NCBI GenBank assembly: GCA_042584585.1
Contig: JBHOSQ010000006.1
Location: 266 to 64,265 of the forward strand
DNA length: 64,000 nucleotides
Direction: 5' to 3'
Source of the DNA: an archaeon
GTDB taxonomy: Archaea > B1Sed10-29 > WALL01
The translations under genes and the position numbers were made by a program. Under the pieces are notes generated by a model. It was not told where the DNA came from. It made no database searches and saw only the letters and a program-made list of their open reading frames with translations. Shown here piece after piece: positions 7,095 through 23,806 of the stretch; the first letter of the stretch is position 1, and every line of letters starts with the position of its first letter.

Positions 7095-7154
7095 ATGCCT
7101 ACCTGGAGCCACTCCCGCATTTCGACTTACGAGTCCTGCCCCCTGAAATTCTTC
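7095..7154 (+). pseudogene. orphan 5' fragment (20 codons) of the Cas4-like nuclease gene
   Basis: ATGCCTACCTGGAGCCACTCCCGCATTTCGACTTACGAGTCCTGCCCCCTGAAATTCTTC. It differs from 22658-22717 at 4 positions, all synonymous. Confidence 0.85.
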
Positions 7155-7163
7155 TTAACGGTG

Positions 7164-7985
7164 TCAAAACAGCGTACCGCGTTCCTCGGAGTATACTTGG
7201 CCGTTGTGATGTAGTTTTACGGTGATTGTTCCCATTGGAAAAACACCGGTGGGTTGTTTGTCGTATGGAGCCCTTACCCCGTATCCAAATAGAGTGCTAT
7301 ACTTTTCTGGGTTTAGTTGTATGCCTTTGGCGTCAATAACCGTGTCTGTTACCGTGTACGGGTTGGAGTTGGCGTCAAATTTAGTGGCTTCTGTTATAGC
7401 CAAAACATCTACTGTGCCATCCACCTCCATCATGTTGTCCTGCGCGTCATATGCCCTTAAGTCAAACTCAAGCCCGTCATCTTCCGAATCACTGTCCCAG
7501 TTCTTGCTTATTGGTGTTGATACAGAGATGTATTGCACAACCGGCGTGGGTTCGGGGGTTGGTTCTGCGGTTGGCTCCGGCGTTGGCGTGGGTTCGGGGG
7601 TTGGCTCAACCGTTGGTTCGGGGGTGGGCGTTGTGGTTGGAGTGCGTGTGTAGTTAGTGGAATAGATATTGTCGGAGAAGTATTGTGTGATGCCATTAGT
7701 GTCTGTCGCAGTCACCTTGATGTTGTGTACTCCTTCTGGGTACTGCTTGTCTTCGATAAGCTTTTCGCCTGGACTAAGGCTTGTTGTTTTTCCGTCGTCG
7801 AGGTCAACAACACAGCCCGTTGATTGTTCTGAATTCACGCAGTCCACTTCAATGTGCACGTTGAGGGGCGCGGGCCCGATTGTGTCATTGATGGCCAGTA
7901 TTGCTAGCTCAACTGTCGCGGGTGTGTCGTCAATACACCCCGCCAGTATGACAAGCGCCATGATCGCGAACAAAACCAACTTCAT
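7164..7985 (-). CDS. lipoprotein with PKD/Ig-like domain and Pro/Thr/Glu-rich linker
   Basis: Start taken at MKLVLFAIMALVILAGC (lipobox), about 25 nt after the minus-strand TATA in 8005-8025. Linker TPTTTPTPEPTVEPTPEPTPTPEPT. The track ORF extends to 8045. Confidence 0.65.
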   Translation of the reverse strand: MKLVLFAIMALVILAGCIDDTPATVELAILAINDTIGPAPLNVHIEVDCVNSEQSTGCVVDLDDGKTTSLSPGEKLIEDKQYPEGVHNIKVTATDTNGITQYFSDNIYSTNYTRTPTTTPTPEPTVEPTPEPTPTPEPTAEPTPEPTPVVQYISVSTPISKNWDSDSEDDGLEFDLRAYDAQDNMMEVDGTVDVLAITEATKFDANSNPYTVTDTVIDAKGIQLNPEKYSTLFGYGVRAPYDKQPTGVFPMGTITVKLHHNGQVYSEERGTLF

Positions 7986-8004
7986 GACGCTAGAAACGTG
8001 CTTT

Positions 8005-8025
8005 GGAAATAAAAACCCTTTTATC
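8005..8025. promoter_or_regulatory. near-palindromic bidirectional TATA motif
   Basis: ggaaataaaaacccttttatc. The minus-strand TATA serves gene 7164..7985. The plus-strand TATA abuts H hairpin 1. Confidence 0.55.
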
Positions 8026-8080
8026 AGCTTAAACTCAGCTGGCACGTTAGGCTTAGGGGCCTTCAGGCCCCTAGAGACAG
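8025..8080 (+). repeat. H element copy C
   Basis: cagcttaAACtcagctg-GCACGTTAGGCTT-aggggccTTCAggcccct-AGAGACAG. Its 3' end overlaps the last codons of minus-strand gene 8071..8514. Confidence 0.8.
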
Positions 8081-8514
8081 ACGCATTCCAACTGATTCTT
8101 TATCTCGTTACAAGCCAGCGAGAAATGTGTTTTGTCTTGTGTTAGGCACAAGTCTCTGCAGGAAGCTTCGACGGTGTCTTTTGTTTCTTGGGTGCCGTAC
8201 TCGTAGTAAGAACAGTACTTCGGGAGGTCATGCCACGCTGGCGGTGGCGGAGTGGGGGTTGGTGTTGGTTCTGGCGTTGGAATTGGCGTGGCTATAGGAA
8301 CTATAGTAACCACTGGGATGGGTGGAAGAGGCGTAGGAATTGGCTGTGGAGTTGGTGTAGCAAGAAACTGGTTTACGGTTCCAATTATTTGGCTTCCGTA
8401 CATTGGCCACACTATAAATGCAGACCCAGCCACCAAAAACAGCAAGAGGATTAAGATTAACCAGTTTTGCACTTTTACTAGAACATCCTCGTATATTGGC
8501 TTTGGGTTAGACAT
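8071..8514 (-). CDS. membrane-anchored protein with PT-rich linker and Cys-rich C-terminus
   Basis: 147 aa with an N-terminal TM (WLILILLLFLVAGSAFIVW) and linker PTPQPIPTPLPP...PTPEPTPTPTPPP. The C-terminus has 6 Cys. A minus-strand promoter aaagcttttatcagg lies upstream. Confidence 0.6.
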   Translation of the reverse strand: MSNPKPIYEDVLVKVQNWLILILLLFLVAGSAFIVWPMYGSQIIGTVNQFLATPTPQPIPTPLPPIPVVTIVPIATPIPTPEPTPTPTPPPPAWHDLPKYCSYYEYGTQETKDTVEASCRDLCLTQDKTHFSLACNEIKNQLECVCL

Positions 8515-8570
8515 ACAACTCTATTAGATTCTCCATTCCCTGATAAAAGCTTTACCTAACACCCACACAG

Positions 8571-8655
8571 CAGCTGAAACTCAGCCCAGACGAGAATCCG
8601 TTGGGATTCACGTCATGGCACGTTGTCCGTGACCCATACGGAGCCAGCGGACTAA
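8571..8655 (+). repeat. H element copy D (GTCCG...CGGAC subtype, with ~30-nt insertion after hairpin 1)
   Basis: cagctgaaactcagc + insert (gaatccGTTGggattc) + GGCACGTTGTCCGTgacccatacggagccAGCGGACTAA. Confidence 0.65.
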
Positions 8656-8680
8656 TCCATCCATTCGGCTTGCCTGGGGC

Positions 8681-8857
8681 TTACTCACTTGGGTAAACGC
8701 TTACTTCTTTCCTAGGGGTGTGCATAACGTTTGTTGACCCACATTCGCTGCACTTCAGACCCACCCGTTTTTTTGACTTGAACATGTTCCCACATTCCCT
8801 GCAGGTGTGTACGTCTTCGTCCATAATGTCCATACGGTTATTGGGGGCAAGAAGCAT
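8681..8857 (-). CDS. small zinc-ribbon protein
   Basis: CRECG...CSECG (CxxC-x15-CxxC). Start trimmed to MLLAPNN to avoid overlap with the upstream gene that ends at 8878. An alternative start is at 8833. Confidence 0.5.
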   Translation of the reverse strand: MLLAPNNRMDIMDEDVHTCRECGNMFKSKKRVGLKCSECGSTNVMHTPRKEVSVYPSE

Positions 8858-8877
8858 AAAATGGTTTATGTGTGAGG

Positions 8878-9696: not shown

Positions 9697-9772
9697 TCCT
9701 TCACTTGTTTTCGACGAATGCTACTTATGCACTCCAAAACACTTAAATCTACTGCCTACATTACTGCCATCA

Positions 9773-9802
9773 ATGCCTACTTGGTCCCACTCCCGCATCA
9801 CA
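9773..9802 (+). pseudogene. orphan promoter plus 5' fragment (10 codons) of the nuclease gene
   Basis: TATA cttaaatc is followed 25 nt later by ATGCCTACTTGGTCCCACTCCCGCATCACA, which is joined directly to H hairpin 1. Confidence 0.8.
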
Positions 9803-9803
9803 A

Positions 9804-9922
9804 CAGCTGAAACTCAGCTGGCACGTTAGACTTGGGCTTGGCCCTGGACGTCGGTCCCCTTGACGTTGACTTGGGTCAACGTCCAGACACGCAACGTCAA
9901 CCTCCGGGGCCCCGCAGAGGCA
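9804..9922 (+). repeat. H element copy E (long form)
   Basis: cagctgaAACtcagctg-GCACGTTAGACTTGGG...gacgttgacTTGGgtcaacgtc...ggggcCCcgc-AGAGGCA. Confidence 0.8.
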
Positions 9923-9961
9923 TGAAAAGGCTTAAATCTATCCCCCGCATTACCCTTACCA

Positions 9962-10045
9962 ATGCCCCCCTGGTCCCACTCCAGAATCAGTACCTACGAG
10001 TCCTGTCCTCTCAAATTCTTTTATAGTTACGTCGAGAAGCCGGAA
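9962..10045 (+). pseudogene. orphan promoter plus 5' fragment (28 codons) of the nuclease gene
   Basis: Encodes MPPWSHSRISTYESCPLKFFYSYVEKPE*. The nucleotide sequence is strongly diverged (AGC>TCC, CGC>AGA, TCG>AGT, TCT>AGT) yet only 2 amino-acid changes result. Confidence 0.85.
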
Positions 10046-10054
10046 TAATCCAAT

Positions 10055-10975
10055 TCATTTCTTTTTCCCGTGTTTTGAAGTGTATTCATCGAGTTCTTTG
10101 AGGGACACGTGCCATTTCCTGCCTATTTTGGTGGCGCCGAGGAGGCCTCGCCGCGAGAGGAGGCTTAGGTATTCCTGGCTGTACGGCGAGTGCTTGGCTG
10201 CCTCGGAGAGTGGGACGAGCCCCGTTTTTTTCCCTGGCTTTTGGAGTGCTTCGAGGTATATGTTCAGGGACTGCTCTACTGCGCGGGCAATGAAGTTCAC
10301 GAGGGGGGCGGGGTTGCCCTTGTCTGCTTCTTTTAGTGCGCGGTAGTACTTTTTTCTGTCGACGAGCCTTAGCACTGTTGGGGGGTAGCCTTCCCTGAAC
10401 AGCATTAGGTTCATCAAGAGCCTTGCGGTCCTGCCGTTGCCGTCGAAGAACGGGTGTATCCACACGAGCTTGTGGTGGGCGAGGGCGGCTTTTTCGATTG
10501 GGTCTTGTTTTGTCGCCTGCATCCACTTGACGAGTTCTCGCATGAGCCGCAGGAGCTTCTGTGGCGCCGGCGGGGTGAACGATGCCCCCGTAATCCTGAT
10601 TCTTTTGTCCCTGTACCTGCCCGCGTATTCGCTGGTCCCTTTCATGAGGATTTCGTGGGTCTCGAGAATGGTTTCTTCAGTGATTTTTTTGGTGCCTTTG
10701 GCTATTGACTCTGTCCACTCCAGCGCTTTTTCGTGGTTTTGTGCCTCGAGGTATTCGTTGAGTGGCTTGCCGCCGACGGTTATTCCTTCTTCCAGAATAA
10801 GCCGGGTTTCCTGGAGCGTGAGCGTGTTTCCTTCAATCGCGTTGGAGTTATAGGTAAGCTCGATGTTCATTTGGTGCCTCAAGCGCTCCACCGCGTCTCG
10901 CGGGAGGGGCCGGAGGCTGTCCAGCAAGGCCTTCTTTGCCTTGATTCTTTCGCGCAGACGCTCATTCAACAACAT
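10055..10975 (-). CDS. fic: Fic/DOC family protein (AMPylase-type Fido domain) with C-terminal HTH-like tail
   Basis: Canonical Fic motif HPFFDGNGRTARLLMN (HxFx[D/E]GNGRxxR). The N-terminal helical region is typical of Fic proteins. TATA-like gttaataaaacg lies about 20 nt upstream. Confidence 0.9.
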   Translation of the reverse strand: MLLNERLRERIKAKKALLDSLRPLPRDAVERLRHQMNIELTYNSNAIEGNTLTLQETRLILEEGITVGGKPLNEYLEAQNHEKALEWTESIAKGTKKITEETILETHEILMKGTSEYAGRYRDKRIRITGASFTPPAPQKLLRLMRELVKWMQATKQDPIEKAALAHHKLVWIHPFFDGNGRTARLLMNLMLFREGYPPTVLRLVDRKKYYRALKEADKGNPAPLVNFIARAVEQSLNIYLEALQKPGKKTGLVPLSEAAKHSPYSQEYLSLLSRRGLLGATKIGRKWHVSLKELDEYTSKHGKKK

Positions 10976-11071
10976 TATCGGATACCTCGTTTTATTAACT
11001 ACCCGATATTATGCAGTATCGGGTATTTAAGCTTTTCGCTTTCCCGATATACGGACAAGAAACCGTTTTAT

Positions 11072-11160
11072 CGCCTGAAACTCAGGCGGCACGTTAGGCT
11101 TGGGCTTGGCCCTGGACGTTGACCCAAGTCAACGTCAACCTCCGGGGTGCCCATAGGCAG
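11072..11160 (+). repeat. H element copy F1 (long form, palindrome loop inverted)
   Basis: cgcctgaAACtcaggcg-GCACGTTAGGCTTGGG..gacgttgacCCAAgtcaacgtc..ATAGGCAG. Confidence 0.8.
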
Positions 11161-11199
11161 GGAAAAACCTTTTATCCCTCCAACGCATTACCCTTAGCG

Positions 11200-11241
11200 A
11201 TGCCTACTTGGTCCCACTCAAGAATCAGCACGTACGATTCC
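11200..11241 (+). pseudogene. orphan promoter plus 5' fragment (14 codons) of the nuclease gene
   Basis: Encodes MPTWSHSRISTYDS, again with Ser/Arg codon-family switches, then H hairpin 1. Confidence 0.8.
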
Positions 11242-11296
11242 AGCTTAAACTAAGTTGGCACGTTTGGCTTGGGAACCTAACGGTTCCCAGAGGCAG
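11241..11296 (+). repeat. H element copy F2
   Basis: cagcttaAACtaagttg-GCACGTTTGGCTT-gggaaccTAACggttccc-AGAGGCAG. Confidence 0.8.
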
Positions 11297-11301
11297 AACA
11301 C

Positions 11302-12335: not shown

Positions 12336-13019
12336 TTATCCTACTTTTTTGGCTATGCTTGTGAGCATGTCGAGGACGGGAATTACTCTTTCTTGGTCGA
12401 ACAGCCTTACGCCTGCTACTGTGAGCTTGAGTTCGTTGTTTTGAATGGTTATTCCCTGGTTTTTTTGCCAGAGGCCCCTGTGCTCAAGCCGGTGTGGCAT
12501 GCTTATGTGCTCGAACAGCTTGTTTAGTTGCTGTGGGTCGTCCAGAACCTTCAGTGCTTTTTGTTGTTGGTTGGTTGCCACCTTGAATTCTGGGGCGAGG
12601 CCGGCGTCGGGTTGTTCAAGTTCTTTTCCTTCTTTTTCAACAAACGATGAGTAGCCCACCACGGTTTTTTGTGTTGTTGGCTTGGTGGTGATTATGAAGT
12701 CCGTGAAGTCAAGCCACTGGATTCCCAGGAACCTTTCGGCGAATTGTGTGGAGAGGGTGTACCACCTGATTTTCACGGCCATTCCTCTGTACGTGCCCGT
12801 TATTGTCCTTGCTTCGGTCACGTGATTGCCGCCGGTGAAGTCAGTCATTTGCCTGAGCAGTCCCATGCCTTTGCGCTCGACTGCGTACGTGAACCCCAGG
12901 CTCTTGGCCAGTTTCTTGAGTGGGTTTCCGCACAAAAGCTTGTAGACAACCCCTAGAATAATAAGGAAAAGGCCGAGGGACATGGAAACGACTTCCCATA
13001 CAGTAAACCCGAACCACAT
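12336..13019 (-). CDS. membrane-anchored hypothetical protein
   Basis: Start moved to MWFGFTVWEVVSMSLGLFLIILGVVYKLL (TM), 30 nt after the minus-strand TATA (gatttaag) of bidirectional motif 13039-13059. The longer track ORF (to 13295) would overlap the divergent gene. Confidence 0.55.
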   Translation of the reverse strand: MWFGFTVWEVVSMSLGLFLIILGVVYKLLCGNPLKKLAKSLGFTYAVERKGMGLLRQMTDFTGGNHVTEARTITGTYRGMAVKIRWYTLSTQFAERFLGIQWLDFTDFIITTKPTTQKTVVGYSSFVEKEGKELEQPDAGLAPEFKVATNQQQKALKVLDDPQQLNKLFEHISMPHRLEHRGLWQKNQGITIQNNELKLTVAGVRLFDQERVIPVLDMLTSIAKKVG

Positions 13020-13038
13020 GAAGAGGCAAACACGAAAG

Positions 13039-13059
13039 AAACACTTAAATCTATCGCCT
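13039..13059. promoter_or_regulatory. bidirectional TATA (cttaaatc / gatttaag) between divergent genes
   Basis: It lies about 30 nt from ATG 13019 (-) and about 25-30 nt from ATG 13075 (+). Confidence 0.55.
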
Positions 13060-13074
13060 GTTTTAGTGGTGGCT

Positions 13075-13870: not shown

Positions 13871-13927
13871 ATGTCCACTTGGAGCCACTCCCGCTTGTCG
13901 TGCTATGAACACTGCCCCCTCAACTTC
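13871..13927 (+). pseudogene. diverged 5' fragment (19 codons) of a nuclease-gene homolog
   Basis: Encodes MSTWSHSRLSCYEHCPLNF followed by H hairpin 1. An in-frame stop falls in the hairpin (..SLN*). Confidence 0.7.
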
Positions 13928-13984
13928 AGCTTAAACTAAGCTGGCACGTTAGGCTTGGGCTGCATAAGGCAGCCCAGAGGCAGG
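13927..13984 (+). repeat. H element copy G
   Basis: cagcttaAACtaagctg-GCACGTTAGGCTT-gggctgcATAAggcagccc-AGAGGCAGG. Confidence 0.8.
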
Positions 13985-14019
13985 AAAAGGCTTTTATCCC
14001 TCTCCGCGCTAAAGGTGGC

Positions 14020-16543: not shown

Positions 16544-16582
16544 AATACATCACACTCACTCTTAGCATAAAAACCCTTTTAT

Positions 16583-16639
16583 CGCCTTAAACTAAGGCGG
16601 CACGTTAGACTTGCGGGGCGCAAGGCCCCGCAGAGGCAG
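16583..16639 (+). repeat. H element copy (16.6 kb)
   Basis: cgccttaAACtaaggcg-GCACGTTAGACTT-gcggggcGCAAggccccgc-AGAGGCAG. Confidence 0.8.
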
Positions 16640-16678
16640 CAAGAACCTTTTTATCCGTTGCCTGTGTTATTCCTAGTA

Positions 16679-17947
16679 ATGCAGAAAGAAATAGCCCAGA
16701 GACAGCAGAAGGCATTGGCTTACTGGGTCGCATTGTTGTTCAGGCATAATGACGGCCTGGAAGTCGGTGAAGTCAGTGAAATGCTGAATAAGCACTTCAA
16801 GGCGCTGCACTTCGATGCTCGTAGCTTAAAGCAATTCTTGAATGATCCGCCGCGTTACGTCCAAAAAGTGAGTGGCGAAGAAGCCGAGGCTGAGTACAAC
16901 AAGGCCCTCGCCCGCTTCACCCCAAGCCGATTCATTGGCAAGGGAGAAATCAAAAAAGGGAGGGCGTGGGCACCCCGGTCCGGGGACCCTCTTGAAAGAG
17001 TGCACATGCTGGGAGTGGCTTACAAGGTTTCTTTGTTGCTCAGGGACAAGCAGGGGCTAGGGCCTGGGCGGATTGCCGAGGTATTGGCCGAGCATTTTGG
17101 GGAGGGAAACTTCAGCGTACACAGCGTGAGCCGTAGCTTCAAGAACCCCCCGGGGTACGCTGACCGCATCACTGACGCTGAAGCCCGTGGAGAATATGCC
17201 AAGGTCGTGGAGAAGACTGGCATCGGAAAAAAGAAGGGGATAATGAAGCTGCACCAGTCGAGTGACAGTATAATGGCGTACCAGCTTTATCACCACTTGA
17301 TTGATAAGTTTGGCTGGGGGTCCACACGCACCCAGACCATTCTGAAGAAGTACACGGGCCTTGAGTTTAAGAGGATTCATTCCAGTGTGAAGCAGGACGT
17401 GCTGCACCCCAAGAAAGACGTTGCGAGTGCGGCCACTGCGTTGCGCGAGAAAATGTCTCTTGACCTTGGGAACTCGATTGTGGTGTTTGAGCTGGTCAAG
17501 CGCTTGAAACAGGATTTTGGGTGTGGCAACGATGACGCATACGACGTTTTGCAGGAGTACAGCGGTAACAATCTGAAGCCGGAACGGAGGACCGTTAAGG
17601 AGTGGCGTGGGGAGCGGAAGCCGCCGGGGTACAAAAAGGGCGTGTTGGTTAAGGCGGTTATTGACAGGCACTTGGACAAGATTTTTTCTGGGACTTCGCT
17701 GAAGAAAAAGTTGTTGGGGTACCACGTGTACAAGCTCGCGCGTGACCGGATTGGCACGGGAGGGGGCTTGAACTACGAAGAGATGCTGAACGAGCACTTT
17801 GGCTCGCCCATTTTTGTGGGGGTACGTTTCGCGCGCTGGGCGGGCAAGCCGAGGCCTCGTGGCTACAAGCAAAGAATTCCCGATGTCACAATCGAAAGGG
17901 AGTACAACCGCTTCCTCAAGACTCACAAAGACAAGCTCAAGAAGTAA
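16679..17947 (+). CDS. protein of about five tandem ~80-100 aa helical (HTH-like?) repeats
   Basis: Internal repeats end in NDPPRYVQK.., KNPPGYADR.., RKPPGYKKG.. and PRPRGYKQR... Each is preceded by a similar helical module (E.L.EHFG...). The ATG lies about 35 nt after the TATA. Confidence 0.6.
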   Translation: MQKEIAQRQQKALAYWVALLFRHNDGLEVGEVSEMLNKHFKALHFDARSLKQFLNDPPRYVQKVSGEEAEAEYNKALARFTPSRFIGKGEIKKGRAWAPRSGDPLERVHMLGVAYKVSLLLRDKQGLGPGRIAEVLAEHFGEGNFSVHSVSRSFKNPPGYADRITDAEARGEYAKVVEKTGIGKKKGIMKLHQSSDSIMAYQLYHHLIDKFGWGSTRTQTILKKYTGLEFKRIHSSVKQDVLHPKKDVASAATALREKMSLDLGNSIVVFELVKRLKQDFGCGNDDAYDVLQEYSGNNLKPERRTVKEWRGERKPPGYKKGVLVKAVIDRHLDKIFSGTSLKKKLLGYHVYKLARDRIGTGGGLNYEEMLNEHFGSPIFVGVRFARWAGKPRPRGYKQRIPDVTIEREYNRFLKTHKDKLKK

Positions 17948-17981
17948 ACCCTTTTATCCATCCCCCGCATTACCCTTACCA

Positions 17982-18032
17982 ATGCCTACCTGGAGCCACT
18001 CCCGCATTTCAACGTACGAGTCCTGCCCCCTC
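17982..18032 (+). pseudogene. orphan promoter plus 5' fragment (17 codons) of the nuclease gene
   Basis: aaacccttttatccatcccccgcattacccttaccaATGCCTACCTGGAGCCACTCCCGCATTTCAACGTACGAGTCCTGCCCCCTC. It abuts the stop of minus-strand gene 18034..18693. Confidence 0.85.
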
Positions 18033-18033: not shown

Positions 18034-18693
18034 TTATCTTGCGGGCTTGAACCCAATGACACACGGGCTGGTTGTGTTTATGGGGCAGTAAGCCCATATC
18101 TTTCCATCTGTATCATTGGTTACTTCTAGTTCTTGGGGCGTGCATTGGAACGAGTCTTGTGGGAAGTAGTATCCCTCGCACTTGCCGTCCACGTCGTTCA
18201 CTCCCGCGCAGCAGAACTGCACGTAACCTGGCTTAAGCCCAACTATATGGGCCGCTACGTCTGCGGTGTACTCCTCGGCTTCACTGAAGAGAACCACTTG
18301 GGGAGACAACGAACCCAATCCCCCTTCACCCACGTGGTTTAGTTCTTGCTTTATTACGTTGATTGGGTCTTGGTCATAAAAAGAGGAGGATGATGGGAAT
18401 ATGGCAGCGAATACAACTGTTGAGAGAAGCATGGTGATCACTATGATTGACAAGCGTTTGATGTGGGCATCCATGGGCTTGTGGAGAACTCTTTCCGCTA
18501 TTTTAAGTGCGACGAGCAGGACTATTGCGATAGCGATGTATGCCGCGTCTAGCATTAAGGCCGCTTCCATGTCCAGCCAAACACTTGTACTAAGGCCTCC
18601 GCTTATGAAGAATGCCACGAACACCCCCACGACTACAAGGGCTAGTTTGTTAATGATTGCGTTGATGCCTTCCCAGTCCATACCCCCAAACAC
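18034..18693 (-). CDS. membrane protein with C-terminal Cys-rich domain (paralog family with 20148 and 20552)
   Basis: Three N-terminal TM helices. The C-terminus FCCAGVNDVDGKCEGYYFPQDSFQCTPQELEV...AYCP...CVIGFK is shared with the two lipoproteins at 20148-20965. Confidence 0.6.
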   Translation of the reverse strand: MFGGMDWEGINAIINKLALVVVGVFVAFFISGGLSTSVWLDMEAALMLDAAYIAIAIVLLVALKIAERVLHKPMDAHIKRLSIIVITMLLSTVVFAAIFPSSSSFYDQDPINVIKQELNHVGEGGLGSLSPQVVLFSEAEEYTADVAAHIVGLKPGYVQFCCAGVNDVDGKCEGYYFPQDSFQCTPQELEVTNDTDGKIWAYCPINTTSPCVIGFKPAR

Positions 18694-18735
18694 TCGCCCA
18701 AAACACTTAAATCTACCGCCTGCTTATTGCCAGTG

Positions 18736-18792
18736 ATGCCCACTTGGAGCCACTCCTGCATATCCACGTACGAGTCCTGTCCCCTCAACTTC
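18736..18792 (+). pseudogene. orphan promoter plus 5' fragment (19 codons) of the nuclease gene
   Basis: Encodes MPTWSHSCISTYESCPLNF and is then joined to H hairpin 1. Confidence 0.8.
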
Positions 18793-18848
18793 AGCTTAAA
18801 CTAAGCTGGCACGTTAGGCTTGGGAGCCTAAAGGCTCCCAGAGGCAGG
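18792..18848 (+). repeat. H element copy J
   Basis: cagcttaAACtaagctg-GCACGTTAGGCTT-gggagccTAAAggctccc-AGAGGCAGG. Confidence 0.8.
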
Positions 18849-18857
18849 GAAAAGGCT

Positions 18858-19214
18858 TTAGGGCGCAACGTATTTTGTTTGTATTCCTGTTGGTTGGCCG
18901 GGATTTTGTTGGGTATGGAACACGATTAGTTGTATTCCTTGGTCTATTGCGTCTTGAGTAATCAGGGAGAGCTCTTCTTGTGTTGCGCTCTTTTTGTTGT
19001 GGAGTATTCTCAACAAGCCGTTTTCTTGGAGCTGACCGACCGGCCAATTGTTTTTCTTGATGAGTGGCCAGAGTTCCTGCGTCCCGCCGAAGTCACTGAT
19101 GAATAGTGTTTTGGTGCCGGCCTTGCTTGCGGTGACTGCTTGGCCAAACGCGTCTTCTAGTGTTGACGAGGGCGCGGCTGCCGGCTTTGGCTTCAGGAAG
19201 TCAAGGAGTCCCAT
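18858..19214 (-). CDS. hypothetical protein
   Basis: Track ORF of 118 aa. No domain recognised. Confidence 0.55.
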   Translation of the reverse strand: MGLLDFLKPKPAAAPSSTLEDAFGQAVTASKAGTKTLFISDFGGTQELWPLIKKNNWPVGQLQENGLLRILHNKKSATQEELSLITQDAIDQGIQLIVFHTQQNPGQPTGIQTKYVAP

Positions 19215-19240
19215 GGTTTTTGGCTAAGCGCTTGTGGTAT

Positions 19241-19750
19241 TTAAGCGAGGTATGCCCAGGCCACTGCGATTAGCATTGTTACGTCCATTACGCGAATGAA
19301 TTTGTTCATTGCCGGGCGGTATTCGTGGATTGCTTCTACGTTGAGGCCTATCATGTCGACTATCCACCTGGCGGAGGCCGCGATGAGGAAGAGTTGTCCC
19401 ATTCCGGGGAGCGAGGTGAGTGCGAGGCCGCCGGGGGGCTGGCCGGGGAAGGGCAACATCATTGCGGCGACCCAGGCGTCGAAGTAGTACAGCATCGCGA
19501 GGCCCATTCGCATGAAGCCCCATTTTTTGGCGATTACGTTGCCCAACAATGAGTTGACTATGAACAGGAACAATGCGAGTATGGCTATGTGTTCGACGTA
19601 TCCCGTGAAGTATTCCGCGAGGATGGACACGCCCCAGAACAGGAATATGGCGAGGGCCAGGAACGTGATTTGCTTGTCGCCGTAGGCCTTTCTCCACAGT
19701 GCCCCATGCACATCAGGAGGGAGTATGCGGTAGCCTTTCTTCTTGGCCAT
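19241..19750 (-). CDS. polytopic membrane protein
   Basis: 169 aa with 4-5 hydrophobic helices. The overlapping R-rich ORF 19224..19697 is rejected. Confidence 0.6.
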   Translation of the reverse strand: MAKKKGYRILPPDVHGALWRKAYGDKQITFLALAIFLFWGVSILAEYFTGYVEHIAILALFLFIVNSLLGNVIAKKWGFMRMGLAMLYYFDAWVAAMMLPFPGQPPGGLALTSLPGMGQLFLIAASARWIVDMIGLNVEAIHEYRPAMNKFIRVMDVTMLIAVAWAYLA

Positions 19751-19791
19751 GCCTCGAAAAACGCTTCCAAAACACTTAAATCTATCCCCCG

Positions 19792-19847
19792 CAGCTTAAA
19801 CTAAGCTGGCACGTTGTCCGTGCCGGCTTGCGGGGCCAGCGGACTAA
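19792..19847 (+). repeat. H element copy K (GTCCG...CGGAC subtype)
   Basis: cagcttaAACtaagctg-GCACGTT-gtccgtgccggcttgcggggccagcggac-TAA. Confidence 0.75.
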
Positions 19848-19876
19848 GGTTTTTTATTCTCCGGGCGCTTTGAGAG

Positions 19877-20143
19877 TTGATAATGGTGCTCATTCCAGGG
19901 GACACAACACCAATAACTGTCTCAGCTGTATCGCTCTTGGGGTTGGTTTTGCCTTTCGTGGTTTTGATTTATGCTTACTTTCGTGTTTCCAAAGGAAAAA
20001 TAAATCTCCTCAAAAAGATGACGCCCATACAACTCGGGATACTGCTCCTTTTGATAGTGTGGTTTTGTGTCACCCTAATCTCAGTAATCACCCCGTTTTT
20101 CCGTATTGCGGTGATGGGTAGCCCCTTAGTGTTTACATGGTGA
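19877..20143 (+). CDS. small membrane protein
   Basis: 88 aa with 3 hydrophobic segments. The ATG is 29 nt after TATA ggttttttattc. Confidence 0.5.
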   Translation: MIMVLIPGDTTPITVSAVSLLGLVLPFVVLIYAYFRVSKGKINLLKKMTPIQLGILLLLIVWFCVTLISVITPFFRIAVMGSPLVFTW

Positions 20144-20147
20144 AGAA

Positions 20148-20555
20148 ATGAAACGAATCGCTTTGCTCGCAATCGTGACTCTTGTCGTGCTGGCGGGATG
20201 CTTAGAGACTACATGTTGTGCGTCGACAGCTGCCTACATGGGTAATGAAGTGCAGCAAGTAGACGTCAATCAAAAAAGTATCAGTTCCGTGATTATTGTA
20301 TTTGGTGAGGGTGACACATACACTACAGAACAAGTGGCGTTTGAAGCCAATCGTGAAGGAGAACAAGTGTTGTTTTGTTGTGTTGACTCGCCAGAAGAAA
20401 AATGCGCTGGTTACGAATTCCCGAGCAGTGAATTTGACTGCACCCCAGAAAAAGTCGTGGTAAAAACAGAAACACAAGGCAACATAATGGCCTACGCCGG
20501 CTCTCAAGAACAAGGAACACGCTACTTTTTGGTTGGCATTAAGGTGGTTTCATGA
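20148..20555 (+). CDS. lipoprotein with Cys-rich C-terminal domain
   Basis: MKRIALLAIVTLVVLAGC lipobox. C-terminus LFCCVDSPEEKCAGYEFPSSEFDCTPEKV. It overlaps the next gene by 4 nt (ATGA). Confidence 0.6.
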   Translation: MKRIALLAIVTLVVLAGCLETTCCASTAAYMGNEVQQVDVNQKSISSVIIVFGEGDTYTTEQVAFEANREGEQVLFCCVDSPEEKCAGYEFPSSEFDCTPEKVVVKTETQGNIMAYAGSQEQGTRYFLVGIKVVS

Positions 20556-20965
20556 TATCCAACGCCTTGCTTTTCATTGTTGTTCTGGCCATGCTGGTGG
20601 GTTGCTTGACCCCGCTTTCAACTAACCACAGCCCGATTGTCATGATGGGGCAGGGGCTTAATTTAATCAAGAAGGGTGGGGCAGTCACCATATCGGATTT
20701 GTCTGCCGAATTCATTGAAGGCGGGATTTATGCTGCGGACGCGGCTGCCAGTGAAGCGGTTGGATTGGCTAACGGCAGCGTGTCTTTTTGTTGCCAATTC
20801 ACTCAAGAAGAAAAATGCAGTGGGTTTGAGTTCCCAGAAGATACTTTCGACTGCCAGCCAAGCACGCTAACAGCAAAGAAAACAATACAAGGCAGGATTA
20901 TGGCCTATTGCCGAAAAACCAAGGAAGACTGCTTCATTGGATTCAAATCAGTGGAGGGCGTCTAA
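20552..20965 (+). CDS. lipoprotein with Cys-rich C-terminal domain
   Basis: MISNALLFIVVLAMLVGC lipobox. C-terminus SFCCQFTQEEKCSGFEFPEDTFDCQPSTL...AYC...CFIGFK. Confidence 0.6.
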   Translation: MISNALLFIVVLAMLVGCLTPLSTNHSPIVMMGQGLNLIKKGGAVTISDLSAEFIEGGIYAADAAASEAVGLANGSVSFCCQFTQEEKCSGFEFPEDTFDCQPSTLTAKKTIQGRIMAYCRKTKEDCFIGFKSVEGV

Positions 20966-20984
20966 TGCCTACCTGGTCCCACTC
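20965..20984 (+). pseudogene. shortest 5' fragment (20 nt) of the nuclease gene
   Basis: ATGCCTACCTGGTCCCACTC overlaps the TAA stop of gene 20552..20965 (TAATG) and is joined to H hairpin 1. Confidence 0.6.
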
Positions 20985-21038
20985 AGCTTAAACTAAGCTG
21001 GCACGTTGTCCGTGGCCCCTGCGGGGCCAGCGGACTAA
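20984..21038 (+). repeat. H element copy L (GTCCG...CGGAC subtype)
   Basis: cagcttaAACtaagctg-GCACGTT-gtccgt-ggccccTGCggggcc-agcggac-TAA. Confidence 0.75.
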
Positions 21039-21072
21039 ACACTTTTTATAGGTGGAAAGTGTTGTGGGGGAT

Positions 21073-21378
21073 ATGAACCTAAAGCAAGTCTTGAAGCCAC
21101 GAAAAGGCAGTTTAAAGGTCCTCCTCGTCTTGTTTGTAGTCTTAGTAATTCTGACAATGTACTCCTTTGTGGGACGGAGCTATTCGATACTGGCCCCCTT
21201 CCCCATGATAAGCCAGACTTGTGGTGTAATAGACCCCGTTTGTGCCGTTGAAATTAGCTGGCTTGGGATTATTGGCAGCCTGATAATTTGGATTCTGGTT
21301 TATGTCGCGTCATCCTACTTCTTTTACCAAAAAGAAAAAAAGACGCTGTCTATTGTGAAAAGCACATTCGAAAAATAA
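21073..21378 (+). CDS. small membrane protein
   Basis: ATG 21073 is 30 nt after TATA ctttttatagg. Two or three TM helices. Confidence 0.5.
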   Translation: MNLKQVLKPRKGSLKVLLVLFVVLVILTMYSFVGRSYSILAPFPMISQTCGVIDPVCAVEISWLGIIGSLIIWILVYVASSYFFYQKEKKTLSIVKSTFEK

Positions 21379-21401
21379 GTTGGCAGTGCATAGTCGTTGT
21401 A
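21378..21401 (+). repeat. distant copy of the 23S 3'-trailer processing-stem half
   Basis: agttggcagtgcatagtcgttgta is identical over 24 nt to 35165-35188 and near-identical to the functional stem half at 35329-35354. Confidence 0.8.
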
Positions 21402-21404
21402 AAT

Positions 21405-21460
21405 CAGCTGAAACTCAGCTGGCACGTTAGACTTGGGAGCCTAAAGGCTCCCAGAGGCAG
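21405..21460 (+). repeat. H element copy M
   Basis: cagctgaAACtcagctg-GCACGTTAGACTT-gggagccTAAAggctccc-AGAGGCAG. Confidence 0.8.
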
Positions 21461-21499
21461 CAAAAACCTTTTTATCCTTCCACTGCCTATTCTTTGTTA

Positions 21500-22615
21500 A
21501 TGCCGGGAAAAGAGCTGGAGGAGCGGGCGCCTTTCGACAGGGACAAGTTCTTGTTGAAGATGGGCAAGAAGTCTGCTAGGGACGTCAAGAAATTGATGAG
21601 CGCCAAGCCTCCGGAACTCAAGTCATTGGACCCCGAGTTGAAGAAGCTTGTTGAGGAGCGGATGAAGACCCCTCTCAGCGCGTTTGACCTTAAGTACCGG
21701 TTGTTTGGGGTAGGGAACTACGGCAAGAAGTACAAAAAAGAACAAGTCGGTAGGTACAAGCTTGAGTCCCAAGCAATGTTTATCGCGGGCCAGTTGCACC
21801 TCAAGGACGAGCCGCTTGACGCGCTGTACAGTTATTTTTGGCCTGTTGCCCAGGCGCACTTGAGTATGCCTGAGTACAAGATGCCGGGGGGCATTGGCCG
21901 CAGGAGCCTTAGGGTGGCCAAGCTTATTTCGAAGGCATGGGTTCATTCGCACGCGTTTGATTACGCCAATCTTGAGTTGAAGGACTTCAAGCCGTTTTAT
22001 GGTGGCCACGAGACGCGGACCGTATGGTCTGCGTTGGGCGTGGACATTTTGGGGCGGGCTGGTGACGTGGAAGACATTCCTGCGCTTGACCAGATTTCCG
22101 AGAAGTGTTGGGAGGGCTCGATGGAAGGTGATTGTGGTGCGGCTCGCCGCAAGATTATTTCGAGGGCTGCGCTGAAGGCCACGCTGGACCGTGAGCAGTT
22201 GGAAAAGGTGGGGTTGAAGACGAAGTTGAGTGACGTGCACTTGATTGACAAGCTTGTTCCGTTGATGAACGTTAGTGGGTTGTCGTATGTTTTGCAGGCG
22301 TTTCCGGGGATGAAGGGCATGGCTCGGCTGTCAACGAATCCTGTGGAGGCTTCGTTGGAGGCAAAGGAAATCAAGAAGATTGTTCAGAAGGGTGTGGGCC
22401 GGGAGTTTGAGTTCAAGCCAGGAATGTTTGCTGAGGGCGAGGAGTACGCGTACTACGGGTCCGCACAGTCGTTTGCCGAGGAACACGGCCTGATAAAAGA
22501 CACCGGCAGAAAAGAATACCGCTCCAGCAGAAAGTTCTTCAAGTTCACGCCCAAAGGCAAAAAATTCATCAAGGCCTTGTTCAAAGGGCTGAAAGACATA
22601 CAAATCAAGTTCTAG
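21500..22615 (+). CDS. hypothetical protein
   Basis: 371 aa with a consensus promoter upstream. I recognise no recombinase or nuclease motif. It lies directly upstream of the nuclease gene. Confidence 0.6.
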   Translation: MPGKELEERAPFDRDKFLLKMGKKSARDVKKLMSAKPPELKSLDPELKKLVEERMKTPLSAFDLKYRLFGVGNYGKKYKKEQVGRYKLESQAMFIAGQLHLKDEPLDALYSYFWPVAQAHLSMPEYKMPGGIGRRSLRVAKLISKAWVHSHAFDYANLELKDFKPFYGGHETRTVWSALGVDILGRAGDVEDIPALDQISEKCWEGSMEGDCGAARRKIISRAALKATLDREQLEKVGLKTKLSDVHLIDKLVPLMNVSGLSYVLQAFPGMKGMARLSTNPVEASLEAKEIKKIVQKGVGREFEFKPGMFAEGEEYAYYGSAQSFAEEHGLIKDTGRKEYRSSRKFFKFTPKGKKFIKALFKGLKDIQIKF

Positions 22616-22623
22616 TGCCCCGC

Positions 22624-22640
22624 AACCCTTTTATCCCTCC
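22624..22640 (+). promoter_or_regulatory. BRE/TATA promoter of the intact nuclease gene
   Basis: aacccttttatccctcc, with ATG 22658 29 nt after the TATA start. The same promoter-leader-ATG architecture is seen in the orphan fragments. Confidence 0.65.
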
Positions 22641-22657
22641 ACCGCGTAAAACCGTTG

Positions 22658-23806
22658 ATGCCTACCTGGAGCCACTCCCGCATTTCGACGTACGAGTCCT
22701 GTCCCCTTAAATTCTTTTATTCTTACGTCGAGAAGCCGGATGTTGAGGAGGTATTGGGGGACAATATCGCTCTTGTGCTGGGCAAGAGCTGTCACGAGGC
22801 GCTTGAGTGGCTGTACAAAGAGCTGTCCATGGGCGGGGAGCCCACTCTGGACGACGCTATCGACTATTATACCCAATCCTGGGGCAAGATGTGGACCCCT
22901 GACGTCATTATCCCCAACCACGACGAAAAGACGTGGAAAAGCCTTGGGGTGCGGTACCTTGGCGACTTTTACAACAGGCATTCGCCGTTCATCGAGGACC
23001 GGACGGTTGCCCTCGAGAGAATGATTCGCCTTAAGCTCGGCAAATACAGCTTAATCGGCTATATTGACCGTATTGCCGAGGCTGGTCCCGGCCATTACAA
23101 GGTCATTGACTACAAAACGAATAAGTGGCTGGCGCCCCAGGAAAAGTTTGATTCCGACAGGCAGTTGGCGCTGTACGAGTTGGGGGTTCGTCAAATGTTT
23201 CTTGACGCCAAGAAAGTTGATTTGGTGTGGGAAATGCTTCACTTCAACAAGACCATTGTTTCGCATCGTTCTCCGGCGCAGCTCGCGGAACTGAAGCGCG
23301 ACACCATTGCTATTATACAAGAAATCGAGGAATGCGAAGACTACCCGGCCAAAACCAGTAAGTTGTGTGACTGGTGTTCGTTCCAGGAGATTTGTCCGAA
23401 GAAGAAGCACGAGCGCGCGACCACGCGCATGACGGTACGCGAGTTCCGCAAGGACGAGGGTGTGAAGGTCGCGAACAAGTTTGTGCAGACAAAGCTGAAG
23501 CTGGACGAGTGGGGGTTGAAGACCAACGAGGCGCGGAAGGACGTGTTGGCTTACAGCGAACAGCAGGATACTGCGAGAGTCATTGGGTCGAAGGCGGCTG
23601 TGTCGGTAAGCACGATGAAGAGGGTCTCATTCGACCCGAAGGTTGAGAAGCTGCTGAAGAAAGAGGGGTTGTGGGAGAGGTTTAGTAGGTTGGATAGTGG
23701 GGCTTTGGTTAAGGCGCTGGATGAGTTGGAGCCAAAGCTGAAGAAGAAGCTGGAGAAGCTTGAGGAGAGTAAAGAATCTTTGTCTGTGAGGGTTGTTAAG
23801 AAATAG
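22658..23806 (+). CDS. Cas4/RecB-like PD-(D/E)XK nuclease with predicted 4-Cys (Fe-S) cluster
   Basis: N-terminus MPTWSHSRISTYESCPLKFFY (first Cys). GYIDRI...YKVIDYKT is the D...(D/E)xK motif. QLALYELG is the QxxxY motif. C-terminal CDWCSFQEIC is CxxCx5C. The ATG is 29 nt after the promoter motif. No cas genes are nearby. Confidence 0.85.
   Translation: MPTWSHSRISTYESCPLKFFYSYVEKPDVEEVLGDNIALVLGKSCHEALEWLYKELSMGGEPTLDDAIDYYTQSWGKMWTPDVIIPNHDEKTWKSLGVRYLGDFYNRHSPFIEDRTVALERMIRLKLGKYSLIGYIDRIAEAGPGHYKVIDYKTNKWLAPQEKFDSDRQLALYELGVRQMFLDAKKVDLVWEMLHFNKTIVSHRSPAQLAELKRDTIAIIQEIEECEDYPAKTSKLCDWCSFQEICPKKKHERATTRMTVREFRKDEGVKVANKFVQTKLKLDEWGLKTNEARKDVLAYSEQQDTARVIGSKAAVSVSTMKRVSFDPKVEKLLKKEGLWERFSRLDSGALVKALDELEPKLKKKLEKLEESKESLSVRVVKK

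Follow-up and report, generated by a model that had tools for sequence, protein, structure and literature searches.

Integrative elements known to restore a protein gene's end on insertion, and to accrete there in tandem, include phage 21 and e14 (icd, E. coli) and ICESt1/ICESt3 with CIME elements (3' end of fda, Streptococcus thermophilus). The IMEX elements CTX, TLC and VGJ occupy the dif site of Vibrio cholerae, and She et al. are said to have described, in 2001, successive captures at archaeal tRNA genes by SSV-type integrases. Tycheposons are island builders that target tRNA genes (Hackl et al., bioRxiv 10.1101/2020.12.28.424599), and integrons occur in archaea too (Ghaly et al. 2022, PMC9668308).

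Here, we analyzed a 64-kb stretch of DNA (the window) from the chromosome of an Iainarchaeum-like DPANN archaeon, in which the region of ~3.9-22.6 kb is a stack (about 18 kb) of small foreign gene blocks ahead of a Cas4-like nuclease gene. As with the icd and fda elements, an apparently incoming surrogate gene end differs from the resident one mainly at synonymous sites, the displaced end remains as a direct repeat, tandem blocks are divided by gene-end copies after repeated events, and some blocks have no recombinase of their own. Unlike these elements, the array has no integrase inside or adjoining, its blocks measure just 0.2-4 kb, its stump lengths and junctions are variable, its target is a 5' end including the promoter (a related genome, L001, also uses the 3' end of the same gene), and its host is a DPANN archaeon. 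With tycheposons and other tRNA island builders the window shares island growth via repeated integration into a single conserved gene, partial copies of the target between cargo modules, and many modules in which an integrase was lost or never present; the target here, however, is a protein gene and not a tRNA, integrase remnants were not found in the window, and a hairpin repeat that we call M is present.

Integrons resemble the window in their co-oriented arrays of small cassettes, in ~60-nt structured sites whose structure is kept better than their sequence, in a platform gene transcribed away from the array, and in cargo mostly without known function. In contrast to integrons, the window has no IntI, its cassettes have promoters of their own, lie in both orientations and bear pieces of the platform gene at their ends, and M consists of two separate hairpins around an invariant GGCACGTT, whereas attC is an imperfect palindrome. 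The IMEX parallel lies in recombinase-less elements that integrate serially via host enzymes (putative in the window), in a target restored each time, in arrays with orphan target copies, and in a folded single strand able to serve as substrate (again putative here); the target in the window is nevertheless a gene end rather than dif, and no Xer-type site is recognisable, hairpin 1 of M having 7-bp arms and a 3-nt spacer. For M alone, REP/BIME and IS200/IS605-derived hairpin MITEs offer a comparison, being likewise short, hairpin-forming, strand-biased intergenic repeats without terminal inverted repeats, but M is flanked by duplicated, often diverged target, has no conserved left-flank tetranucleotide, and no RAYT or TnpA was seen.

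Results

Gene-start stumps ahead of an intact nuclease gene

The intact gene (22658..23806, + strand; 1149 nt, 382 aa) encodes a PD-(D/E)XK, Cas4-like nuclease (Pfam PF12705, E 4e-30), with matches to Cas4 models lying under the curated cut-off, and is a conserved chromosomal gene with 987 homologues across archaea. Elsewhere, a T4SS-like gene cluster lies downstream of a 66%-identical nuclease, which shows that the neighbourhood of this gene is used by mobile elements. Its putative promoter (22619..22657, + strand) was recognised by sequence motif, the BRE/TATA-like CAACCCTTTTATCC, which also lies 34-36 nt ahead of many ATGs in the window; we take this motif to act as a promoter, and its spacing at the intact gene suggests a leaderless transcript.

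A reading made earlier from the sequence alone (the sequence-only reading) had listed eight copies (20-84 nt) of the 5' end of the nuclease gene, all on the + strand and upstream of it, and each of them was found. Searching the window with the 20-mer ATGCCTACCTGGAGCCACTC (<=3 mismatches) gave eight matches, all on the + strand, against 0.00 expected (100 shuffles), and a ninth copy, at 9962, has four mismatches. Stump 1 (7095..7154; 60 nt, promoter absent) is followed by the 3' end of ORF 7164-8045 (-). Stump 2 with its promoter (9737..9803; ATG 9773, about 30 nt) adjoins M at its right end, and its 65-nt promoter and start recur, 72% identical, straight after the M copy. Stump 3 with promoter (9926..10045; ATG 9962, 84 nt) runs up to the 3' end of a Fic gene (10055-10975, -). 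Both stump 4 with promoter (11164..11241; ATG 11200, 42 nt) and stump 5 (13871..13927; 57 nt, promoter absent) adjoin M on the right, the latter beginning 10 nt past the stop of ORF 12982-13860. Stump 6 with promoter (17946..18032; ATG 17982, 51 nt) is joined to the stop codon of ORF 18034-18693 (-), and the right ends of stump 7 with promoter (18700..18792; ATG 18736, 57 nt) and stump 8 (20965..20984; 20 nt, promoter absent) again adjoin M, the ATG of stump 8 directly adjoining the stop of ORF 20552-20965 (TAATG).

The BRE/TATA-like promoter is kept ~35 nt ahead of the ATG in five of the eight copies (9773, 9962, 11200, 17982 and 18736) and is missing from three (7095, 13871 and 20965). The leader 'cccccgcattacccttaccaATG' has the same sequence in copies 9962 and 17982 and a similar one in 11200; that of the intact gene is different. 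Two promoter-only stumps, overlooked before, lie on the + strand at 19771..19792 (adjoining M and ending 13 nt short of the expected ATG, with the same TATA and 'CTATCCCCCGC' leader as copy 9962) and at 3984..4006 (a nuclease-type promoter that immediately follows a long-form M copy); the stretch 3922-4003 shares 83% identity with 9859-9946. Stump junctions range from just past the TATA box to +84.

Block sizes in the stack range from 0.24 to 4.1 kb, the smallest block (9803-10045, 243 nt) being without cargo. The cargo consists mostly of orphan membrane or secreted proteins plus one Fic gene, and one cargo protein has zero relatives among 5.8 billion sequences. Many blocks have a putative promoter of their own, and cassettes are found in both orientations.

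Coding-type divergence and mosaic gene ends

A formal count found the synonymous enrichment that the sequence-only reading had claimed. Over 131 aligned codons, the window stumps and the intact gene show 62 nucleotide differences and 45 differing codons with 10 amino-acid changes, whereas random placement of the same number of changes (5000 trials) gave a mean of 42.6 amino-acid changes and a minimum of 33. As described earlier, the 60 positions of copy 7095 include 4 differences, every one of them synonymous, and copies 9962 and 11200 show Ser/Arg codon-family switches; copy 9962 has 15 nucleotide differences with one amino-acid change in 27 codons, and the three differences of stump 6 are all synonymous. 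The L001 nuclease is 81% identical to that of the window, and its gene is accompanied by two 5' stumps on the upstream side and four stumps of the 3' end on the downstream side; these mirror-image 3' stumps had also been overlooked. Here the 5' stumps hold 27 differences with 5 amino-acid changes (17.1 expected) and the 3' stumps 71 with 18 (43.4 expected), one 3' stump having 11 differences over 33 nt and zero amino-acid changes. Coding-type divergence in both genomes bears out the proposal that the stumps derive from different functional alleles. The stumps are also not simple decayed duplicates, given the synonymous bias and the absence of any increase in divergence away from the gene: stump 7095, although the most distant, matches the intact gene best, and such non-monotonic divergence excludes simple duplication followed by decay.

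Polarity is uniform, with 5' stumps upstream in 10 of 10 cases and 3' stumps downstream in 4 of 4 across the window and L001, and all 14 are shorter than 110 nt. The cargo is wholly different in L001; no conserved partner gene was found either, which counts against serial insertion. The functional genes of the window and L001 have 17 mismatches in nt 1-64 and 4 in nt 65-171 (Fisher p = 2e-5, with the break point picked post hoc), and both are mosaic exactly in the stump zone. L001 stumps are closer to window alleles than to L001's own nuclease gene; the one closest to that gene agrees with the intact window gene at ~41/52 aligned positions and with its own gene at ~33/52, the expected look of a displaced resident end. 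Three stumps, two from the window (13871 and 18736) and one from L001 (L001:5079), have a common junction of CCCCTCAACTTC with AGCT, at which the 12 nt by M are identical and the upstream 45 nt differ at ~13-19 positions, indicating that the junction-proximal part travels with the insert.

A two-hairpin repeat at block boundaries

M, which the earlier reading had missed, is a 57-nt element with two hairpins, compensatory changes in both of them, no terminal inverted repeats and zero matches in Rfam. The window holds 14 copies, and all 12 in the island lie on the same (+) strand. By covariance model, these are at 3893..3982 (long form with nested palindrome, 35.8 bits), 8024..8082 (75.5 bits; supplying the last codons and stop of ORF 8071-8514, -), 8571..8655 (a variant with an extra hairpin inserted and a type-2 second hairpin, the model matching hairpin 1 only), 9803..9923 (long form with nested palindrome), 11071..11162 (long form, 54.4 bits), 11240..11298 (74.3 bits), 13926..13985 (73.5 bits), 16582..16641 (70.5 bits; between a promoter stump and a full promoter), 18791..18849 (82 bits), 19791..19847 and 20983..21039 (both with a type-2 second hairpin), and 21404..21462 (84.4 bits), the copy closest to the intact gene, which is preceded by a stump (21371-21404) of sequence also present at 35159-35192. 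The model also found two copies outside the island on the - strand, one at 48206..48264 in a second small cassette stack and one at 46886..46944 between a 13-nt stump and a full copy of the same sequence.

Most blocks begin on the left with M, which adjoins five of the eight nuclease stumps; these five and the promoter-only stumps stop exactly at its first base, each time after C, with junctions from just past the TATA box to +57. It is also found at block boundaries without a nuclease stump, and a transporter gene elsewhere is bracketed by two copies. At least nine other metagenome contigs carry M; outside the window it is found next to tRNA genes, in some cases with a duplicated target end on either side. 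In at least five places M is flanked by duplicated, often diverged target sequence (12-65 nt), and no conserved target tetranucleotide was found to its left. By tRNA-Ser, M occupies an orthologous position in two species, with compensatory changes. Each hairpin-2 class is paired with 2-3 hairpin-1 classes, so that the halves of M reassort. M is probably a cis-acting cassette site for recombination or single-strand processing.

The recombinase that the sequence-only reading had suggested looking for was not detected: neither the 64-kb window nor 21 kb of the L001 locus yielded an integrase or other recombinase, and a Pfam scan of the window's scanned ORFs and L001's larger scanned ORFs gave no integrase, transposase or HUH protein. 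There is likewise no fixed crossover core, as the 20 nt common to the window copies are not conserved in L001 and are wholly absent from the promoter-only stumps.

Discussion

Starting from the directly observed stumps, their coding-type divergence and polarity, the mosaic 5' ends and the unshared cargo, we propose with moderate confidence that DNA bringing its own nuclease gene end was inserted serially at the 5' edge of the conserved Cas4-like gene. Each incoming piece would bring its own promoter, the initial 20-84 nt of a nuclease allele that belonged to a different lineage, or both. A single Campbell-type crossover inside the short shared stretch would place the piece ahead of the gene, which stays whole, while a truncated gene start would remain beyond the distal end of the insert. 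Repeated insertion and block shuffling could then yield co-oriented stumps that differ mainly at synonymous sites, and in L001 the same process would also act at the 3' end. We infer a circular or permuted intermediate and a crossover in the shared segment, carried out either by the host's homologous recombination, which would work on 20-120 nt, or by a recombinase whose gene lies elsewhere. Of the att-site-like serial integration suggested earlier, serial insertion still fits best, but neither a recombinase nor a conserved att core accompanies it. Several observations count against serial insertion: some shared segments are just 20 nt with mismatches, short for homologous recombination; several blocks bounded by M end on the right without a nuclease stump; the simple model does not predict the cargo-free M copies with duplicated flanks at tRNA and other gene ends; no circular or empty-site form was seen; and the window array is known from one assembly only.

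Possibly, although we hold this tentatively, the locus is an integron-like system centred on M, whose cassettes move via M x M recombination, probably of folded single strands. The stumps would then be pieces of the flanking gene taken at excision via a degenerate secondary site in the promoter or first 84 nt, and the nuclease gene itself would never have been interrupted. Such a system would accord with the co-orientation of the 12 island copies, the stumps (5/8, plus the promoter-only ones) that end after C at M's first base, their continuum of junctions up to +57 from just past the TATA box, the compensatory changes in both hairpins, the transporter gene between two M copies, and the integron-like layout with a platform gene read away from the array. 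Reassortment of the M halves is expected for crossovers in the invariant GGCACGTT, but all four combinations also occur inside hairpin 1, so recurrent mutation or gene conversion could equally account for it. M moreover does not form the imperfect palindrome seen in attC, an IntI-like gene was not found, and 8 of the 14 stumps lack M (three window stumps, L001:7935 and each of the four 3' stumps), while the mosaic functional 5' ends and the window-like stump by the L001 gene point to replacement of the gene end itself.

It is unlikely that no dedicated element was involved and that chromosomal DNA of related strains entered by homology-facilitated illegitimate recombination, with one-sided homology anchored in the nuclease gene and a microhomology join at the other end. 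Only products with short repeats would survive, because long repeats would recombine out. The missing recombinase, the varying stump lengths, the junctions at a shared C or TC, the mosaic gene body and orphan-gene cargo typical of strain-specific DNA are all compatible with this, and the widespread, conserved nuclease family makes a good anchor. Yet three stumps, one of them in another species, have one and the same junction (n = 57, identical 12-mer plus M), 14 of 14 stumps are <110 nt within a 1149-nt gene, cargo-less blocks go down to 243 nt (9803-10045), and the defined left end at M of most blocks needs an extra assumption.

We consider it improbable that M is a miniature transposable element (an IS200/IS605-type hairpin MITE or REP-like) in a tolerant island, with the stumps as unrelated leftovers of tandem duplication and decay. 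M is indeed short, two-hairpinned, strand-biased and dispersed over at least nine further metagenome contigs, lacks terminal inverted repeats and in some copies has a nested palindrome, but IS200/IS605 elements do not produce the duplicated target (12-65 nt, in at least five places) that flanks it, its left side has no conserved target tetranucleotide, it is kept with compensatory changes at the orthologous tRNA-Ser site in two species, and duplication with decay is rejected by the synonymous bias and non-monotonic divergence. That an assembler chained strain variants of one locus via the shared gene start is scarcely credible, even though the window comes from one metagenome assembly and its exact protein was not traced to a second contig, since the stump-to-M and stump-to-cargo junctions have no common sequence able to mislead an assembler and the sister L001 array was recovered identically from three assemblies and a Logan contig, so arrays of this type are not assembly artefacts.

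The sequence-only reading had presented an array of this kind on a Cas4/RecB-family gene as not known to be described; serial integration with restoration of a gene end is, in general form, already known for other genes. Hotspots at which blocks accrete in tandem beside a gene end are thus familiar, and the layout here is integron-like; what this one adds is the new hairpin repeat M and accretion with no visible recombinase.

Results

The intact gene at 22658-23806 encodes a 382-residue PD-(D/E)XK nuclease (PF12705, E 3.9e-30 over residues 3-247 in a profile search). Its translation contains the Cas4/RecB motifs GYIDRI, IDYK and QLALY along with CDWCSFQEIC, and four cysteines, including C15, are predicted to form a putative Fe-S cluster; C15 falls in the segment encoded by the truncated copies of the gene's 5' end that lie upstream of it (stumps). 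PADLOC Cas4 models matched the protein at E 4e-14, whereas TIGR00372 (Cas4) gave 46.7 bits against a cut-off of 65. As this curated score was not reached, and as we found neither cas genes among the scanned window ORFs nor a CRISPR-like repeat upon comparing the window with itself, we rejected a bona fide CRISPR-associated Cas4. The family of ~400-residue nucleases to which the protein belongs is widespread, occurring in DPANN, Thermoplasmata and Methanoperedens. Exact-protein look-ups with the window nuclease retrieved no contig, and a PDB sequence search gave no match. The scan of the genome collection yielded only one related locus, L001, in a 'Candidatus Iainarchaeum' MAG (DPANN), where the sole close relative of the nuclease gene is found (81% amino acid identity). 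In distant relatives (39-50% identity), a 200-residue CARF/Csa3-like gene sits immediately upstream of the nuclease gene (L002:9383-9985, L034:9384-9986); this pair is missing from the window and L001, where cassettes fill the position. On contig ERZ1426843, a T4SS-like cluster and a methylase lie downstream of the gene for a 66%-identical nuclease, and therefore mobile elements do lodge at this gene.

As the sequence-only reading had reported, copies of the nuclease 5' end (20-84 nt) are present at 7095, 9773, 9962, 11200, 13871, 17982, 18736 and 20965, all on the + strand, and a 20-mer of the gene start, allowing ≤3 mismatches, had eight matches in the window against 0 expected. A BRE/TATA-like motif P (AAAnCCTTTTATC or AACACTTAAATCTA) lies 34-36 nt ahead of ATGs in the window, a spacing that suggests leaderless transcripts, and P is retained in five of the eight stumps. 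Two extra stumps, at 19771-19792 and 3984-4006, consist of the nuclease-type promoter alone. Each inserted block is flanked by direct repeats of the target end, and one intact gene closes the array. The first 20 nt are the stretch common to 9/9 window copies and are absent from the promoter-only stumps; CCACTC is not kept in L001.

We found the divergence of the stumps to be of the coding type, as claimed from the sequence alone. Across 131 codons, 62 nucleotide differences in 45 codons led to 10 amino acid changes, compared to 42.6 ± 3.0 (minimum 33) upon random placement of the same number of changes in 5000 trials. The Nei-Gojobori pN/pS of the window 5' stumps was 0.25, a value that understates the synonymous bias because Ser AGC/TCC switches are scored partly as non-synonymous, so that the amino acid count is the cleaner measure. 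Divergence did not increase with distance: the farthest stump, 7095, is nearly identical to the intact allele, as is 17982, while 9773, 9962 and 11200 belong to a second allele type and 13871 to a third. For the nuclease stumps, the synonymous bias and a divergence that does not increase with distance rule out target duplication or copying followed by neutral decay. The stumps are young fragments from different functional alleles. The near-identical 23-nt repeat at L014, another of the loci compared, may have arisen by target-site duplication and neutral decay.

The related locus L001 carries stumps on both sides of its nuclease gene (10001-11149), with 5' stumps upstream at 5079 and 7935 and four 3'-end stumps downstream, ending at 12741, 13355, 14145 and 15842. 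Every 3' stump codes for ...LEETKESKAVRVVKK-stop, codon-family switches included, and their 71 nucleotide differences amount to 18 amino acid changes versus 43.4 expected; in one stump, none of the 11 differences across 33 nt alters an amino acid. Polarity is complete in the window and L001 combined, with 10/10 5' stumps upstream and 4/4 3' stumps downstream. The L001 array is the same in three assemblies and one Logan contig, so it is not an assembly artefact; block-level polymorphism was not seen among these L001-type assemblies, which are identical. No gene between stumps is common to the window and L001 arrays, and the arrays are clade-specific, as the loci of the more distant homologues of the nuclease (L002, L034-L037) have no stumps.

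The functional genes of the window and L001 are 77% identical overall yet mosaic, with 17 mismatches in nt 1-64, only 4 in nt 65-171, and 15-40% divergence beyond that (Fisher p = 2e-5 for the contrast, with the break point picked post hoc); the break coincides with the stump zone. L001 stump 7935, the nearest to its gene, matches the window allele at ~41/52 positions versus ~33/52 for its own gene, as would a displaced resident end. Furthermore, window stumps 13871 and 18736 and L001 stump 5079 all end at position 57 with an identical 12-mer, CCCCTCAACTTC, whereas the 45 nt upstream of it differ by ~13-19 positions. Therefore, the junction-proximal part travels with the right-hand DNA and the remainder with the left-hand DNA, and a crossover inside the shared segment would give exactly this split.

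While the sequence-only inventory held for the nuclease-start copies, it had overlooked a second repeat, M, of 57-60 nt, which reads C-AGCTK-AAAC-TMAGCT-G, GGCACGTT, a variable GC-rich hairpin and AGAGRCAK. A covariance model located 14 copies in the window, 12/12 on the + strand in 3.9-21.5 kb and two on the - strand (46.9 and 48.2 kb). Hairpin 1 shows double compensatory changes in 3/7 pairs and one break among 17 sequences, hairpin 2 varies freely in sequence with its pairing kept, and wobble pairs fall on the strand as written. Between copies, the halves of M are reassorted, every hairpin-2 class being seen with two or three hairpin-1 classes, which suggests exchange inside the invariant centre, but all four combinations also occur within hairpin 1 itself. 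Rfam gave no match to M at gathering score in the window and none at E ≤ 10 in 18600-21600, which holds four copies. Viral, plasmid and phage collections contained no match to M, and BLAST of the stump plus M unit against plasmid and phage collections gave none either; the gene-start pattern matched viral contigs six times, each time in a chance ORF of 10-22 codons, and no nuclease was present there.

In a metagenome scan, true M copies were found in nine other contigs, 6/9 of which carry tRNA genes near M. M adjoins the 5' end of an orthologous tRNA-Ser in two species, with compensatory differences between the two copies. At L026:860-1001 and L027:1061-1201, M overlaps the 5' end of an opposite-strand tRNA-Ser by 1-2 nt and therefore sits at the expected tRNA promoter/leader position; the L026 pair lies at the end of an EF-2/EF-1alpha/S10 gene cluster. 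On a 1.6-kb metagenome contig (L009:856-1521, - strand), two M copies enclose the gene for a free-standing LAGLIDADG endonuclease together with a tRNA-Asp gene. Long M copies at 3893-3982, 9803-9923 and 11071-11162 contain a nested perfect palindrome, GACGTTGAC-loop-GTCAACGTC, with a 4-nt loop that reads TTGG in two copies and CCAA in the third, and which looks like a small palindromic insert in both orientations (flip/flop).

Several known identities of M were rejected. A coding segment is contradicted by AG..CT to GC..GC swaps that preserve pairing and alter residues, an archaeal terminator by the lack of a T-run on either strand, a C/D or H/ACA RNA by the absence of boxes and of an Rfam match, and a dif/Xer site by the wrong geometry. 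Nor is M an attC, since it forms two independent hairpins and not a single imperfect palindrome with R''/L''-L'/R' pairing; a GTTRRRY-like GTTAGGC occurs mid-M, not at the 3' end, and does not covary with the upstream GCTTAAAC. An IS200/IS605-type hairpin MITE was dismissed for want of a common left-flank motif (TC, AC, CC or GC were seen) and for the presence of duplicated flanks.

Many stumps, though not all, adjoin M directly. The first base of M, invariably preceded by C, marks the exact end of five of eight window stumps, of one of the two 5' stumps of L001 and of promoter-only stump 19771, and a promoter often comes directly after M. In at least five places, M lies between a truncated and a full copy of one local sequence, and these duplicated flanks abut M: 23 nt of a tRNA 3' end at L014, a protein-gene 3' end at L009, 65 nt of promoter plus nuclease start at window 9803, 12 nt upstream of a protease gene at window 46944 (-), and promoter-proximal sequence at window 21404. 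However, 8/14 stumps lack M, including all four 3' stumps, and therefore stump formation does not require M.

The window is archaeal chromosome, its 16S-tRNA(Ala)-23S operon spanning 35.4-40.8 kb, and related arrangements occur elsewhere in it. Another small stack of cassettes, at 46867-49266 (- reading), has 48-nt direct repeats (49219-49266 and 48158-48205, 96% identical) enclosing an EamA transporter gene (48313-49164, +) and one M; another M is enclosed by a third start of the repeat sequence (46867-46885) and a 13-nt stump (46945-46957), and an SBF/ACR3-like transporter gene (47033-48079, -) lies in between, upstream of an M50-like protease gene. The sequence GTGCATAGTCGTTGT occurs in four exact copies (21386-21400, 35174-35188 and 35338-35352 on the + strand, 38429-38443 on the - strand; 0 expected by chance), two of which form opposite sides of the 23S rRNA processing stem. 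A further copy, 35159-35192, lies 150 nt outside the rRNA operon, where a low-GC restriction-modification block has its edge; the segment 21371-21404 is 91% identical to it and runs exactly up to an M copy. Such an arrangement suggests the flank of the rRNA operon as a further target of insertion, with 21.4-35.3 kb, including the nuclease gene, possibly being inserted DNA. The low-GC block itself (23796-35072, 40-43% vs about 51%) directly follows the nuclease gene and holds a type IIG restriction-methylase (23796-26678, -), HARE-HTH and GHKL-ATPase proteins, several orphan ORFs and a C5 cytosine methylase (34011-35072, -); past the 3' stump array of L001 there is a type IIG enzyme as well. 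Additionally, a 40-nt promoter and leader, up to the ATG, occurs twice in inverted orientation (861-900 and 3106-3145, 90% identical) before unrelated genes, one a - strand ORF leaving the window on its left, the other ORF 3143-3883; it seems that promoter modules have been copied about within this genome.

The cargo of the array consists mostly of small membrane or secreted proteins without family assignment, besides a Fic protein, a DUF6498 protein and a small paralogous Cys-rich family. Members of the latter, secreted or lipoprotein-like with 37-38% identity, lie in different blocks at 18034-18693 (-), 20148-20555 (+) and 20552-20965 (+). The cargo protein beside the nuclease had no relative but itself among 5.8 billion sequences. 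Linkers rich in Pro/Thr/Glu, present in cargo proteins from both arrays, are encoded on the - strand by degenerate 12- to 18-nt tandem repeats (window 7543-7650 and 8237-8290; L001 6991-7291). Pfam scans of ~60 main window ORFs and five larger L001 ORFs detected no integrase, transposase or HUH protein. A recombinase next to the array, sought on the strength of the sequence-only reading, was thus not found in these scans, and the contig ends ~0.9 kb left of the island; a recombinase gene may lie elsewhere in the genome.

Discussion

The serial insertion proposed from the sequence alone, made more precise, is the best-supported reading: it gains from the allele origin of the stumps, their polarity and the mosaic gene ends, all of which are observed; no recombinase was found in the scanned ORFs. 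Small cassettes would insert one after another at the edges of a conserved gene, each bringing a short copy of the gene end within which the crossover would fall, such that the gene would remain whole and displaced ends would accumulate outward. The recombination intermediate is what we infer. If M were instead the recombination site of an integron-like system, with the stumps representing captured flank, the exact stump-to-M junctions and the promoter-only stumps would be better accounted for, but such a system fails on the M-less stumps and the mosaic gene ends. Homologous recombination on one side combined with an illegitimate join on the other needs no element at all, but leaves the recurrent junction unexplained. 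These models are not exclusive, as a cassette could enter at the gene end by serial insertion and later be shuffled via M.

The general kind of locus is already known. Phage 21 and e14 regenerate the gene end at icd, ICESt/CIME elements show tandem accretion at fda, and IMEX form recombinase-less arrays at dif; all follow the same logic, as do tycheposons, the tRNA-targeted island builders (bioRxiv 10.1101/2020.12.28.424599). The layout resembles that of an integron (PMC9668308), with short co-oriented cassettes and structured sites between them, 12/12 M on the + strand, but M lacks attC architecture and Pfam scans found no IntI tyrosine recombinase beside the array, where a PD-(D/E)XK nuclease occupies the IntI position. 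Unlike a Campbell-type gene-end integrative element, the locus showed no integrase in the scanned ORFs of or beside the array. Other departures from known systems are the absence of any recombinase gene from the scanned ORFs, the variable junctions, the use of both ends of one protein gene, a duplicated segment that includes the promoter, the presence of M, and a host belonging to the DPANN. Hence, the locus is a variant, of which M is the most novel component.

We also entertain the speculative and rather unlikely notion that M and short target homology constitute a minimal recombinase-less DPANN integration module, where the junction would be set by a structured single-stranded site and the target (nuclease gene end, tRNA end or promoter) would be picked by the 12-120 nt of homology beside it. 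The neighbouring Cas4-like nuclease might act as its processing enzyme. If true, such a module would be a previously undescribed route to integron-like cassette arrays.

Little is understood of the ways in which DPANN archaea, host-dependent and with tiny genomes, acquire and turn over genes for surface and defence functions. The locus is a compact gene-capture hotspot, with a conserved nuclease gene kept intact, foreign cassettes stacked at its ends and no recombinase seen; its hallmark is a new 57-nt repeat under structural constraint, which is also present at tRNA genes of related organisms. If M is not a cis-acting site, the locus nonetheless offers a clear natural record of how alleles were serially replaced at the end of a gene; if it is, M would define a new archaeal cassette system and provide a searchable marker for such islands.
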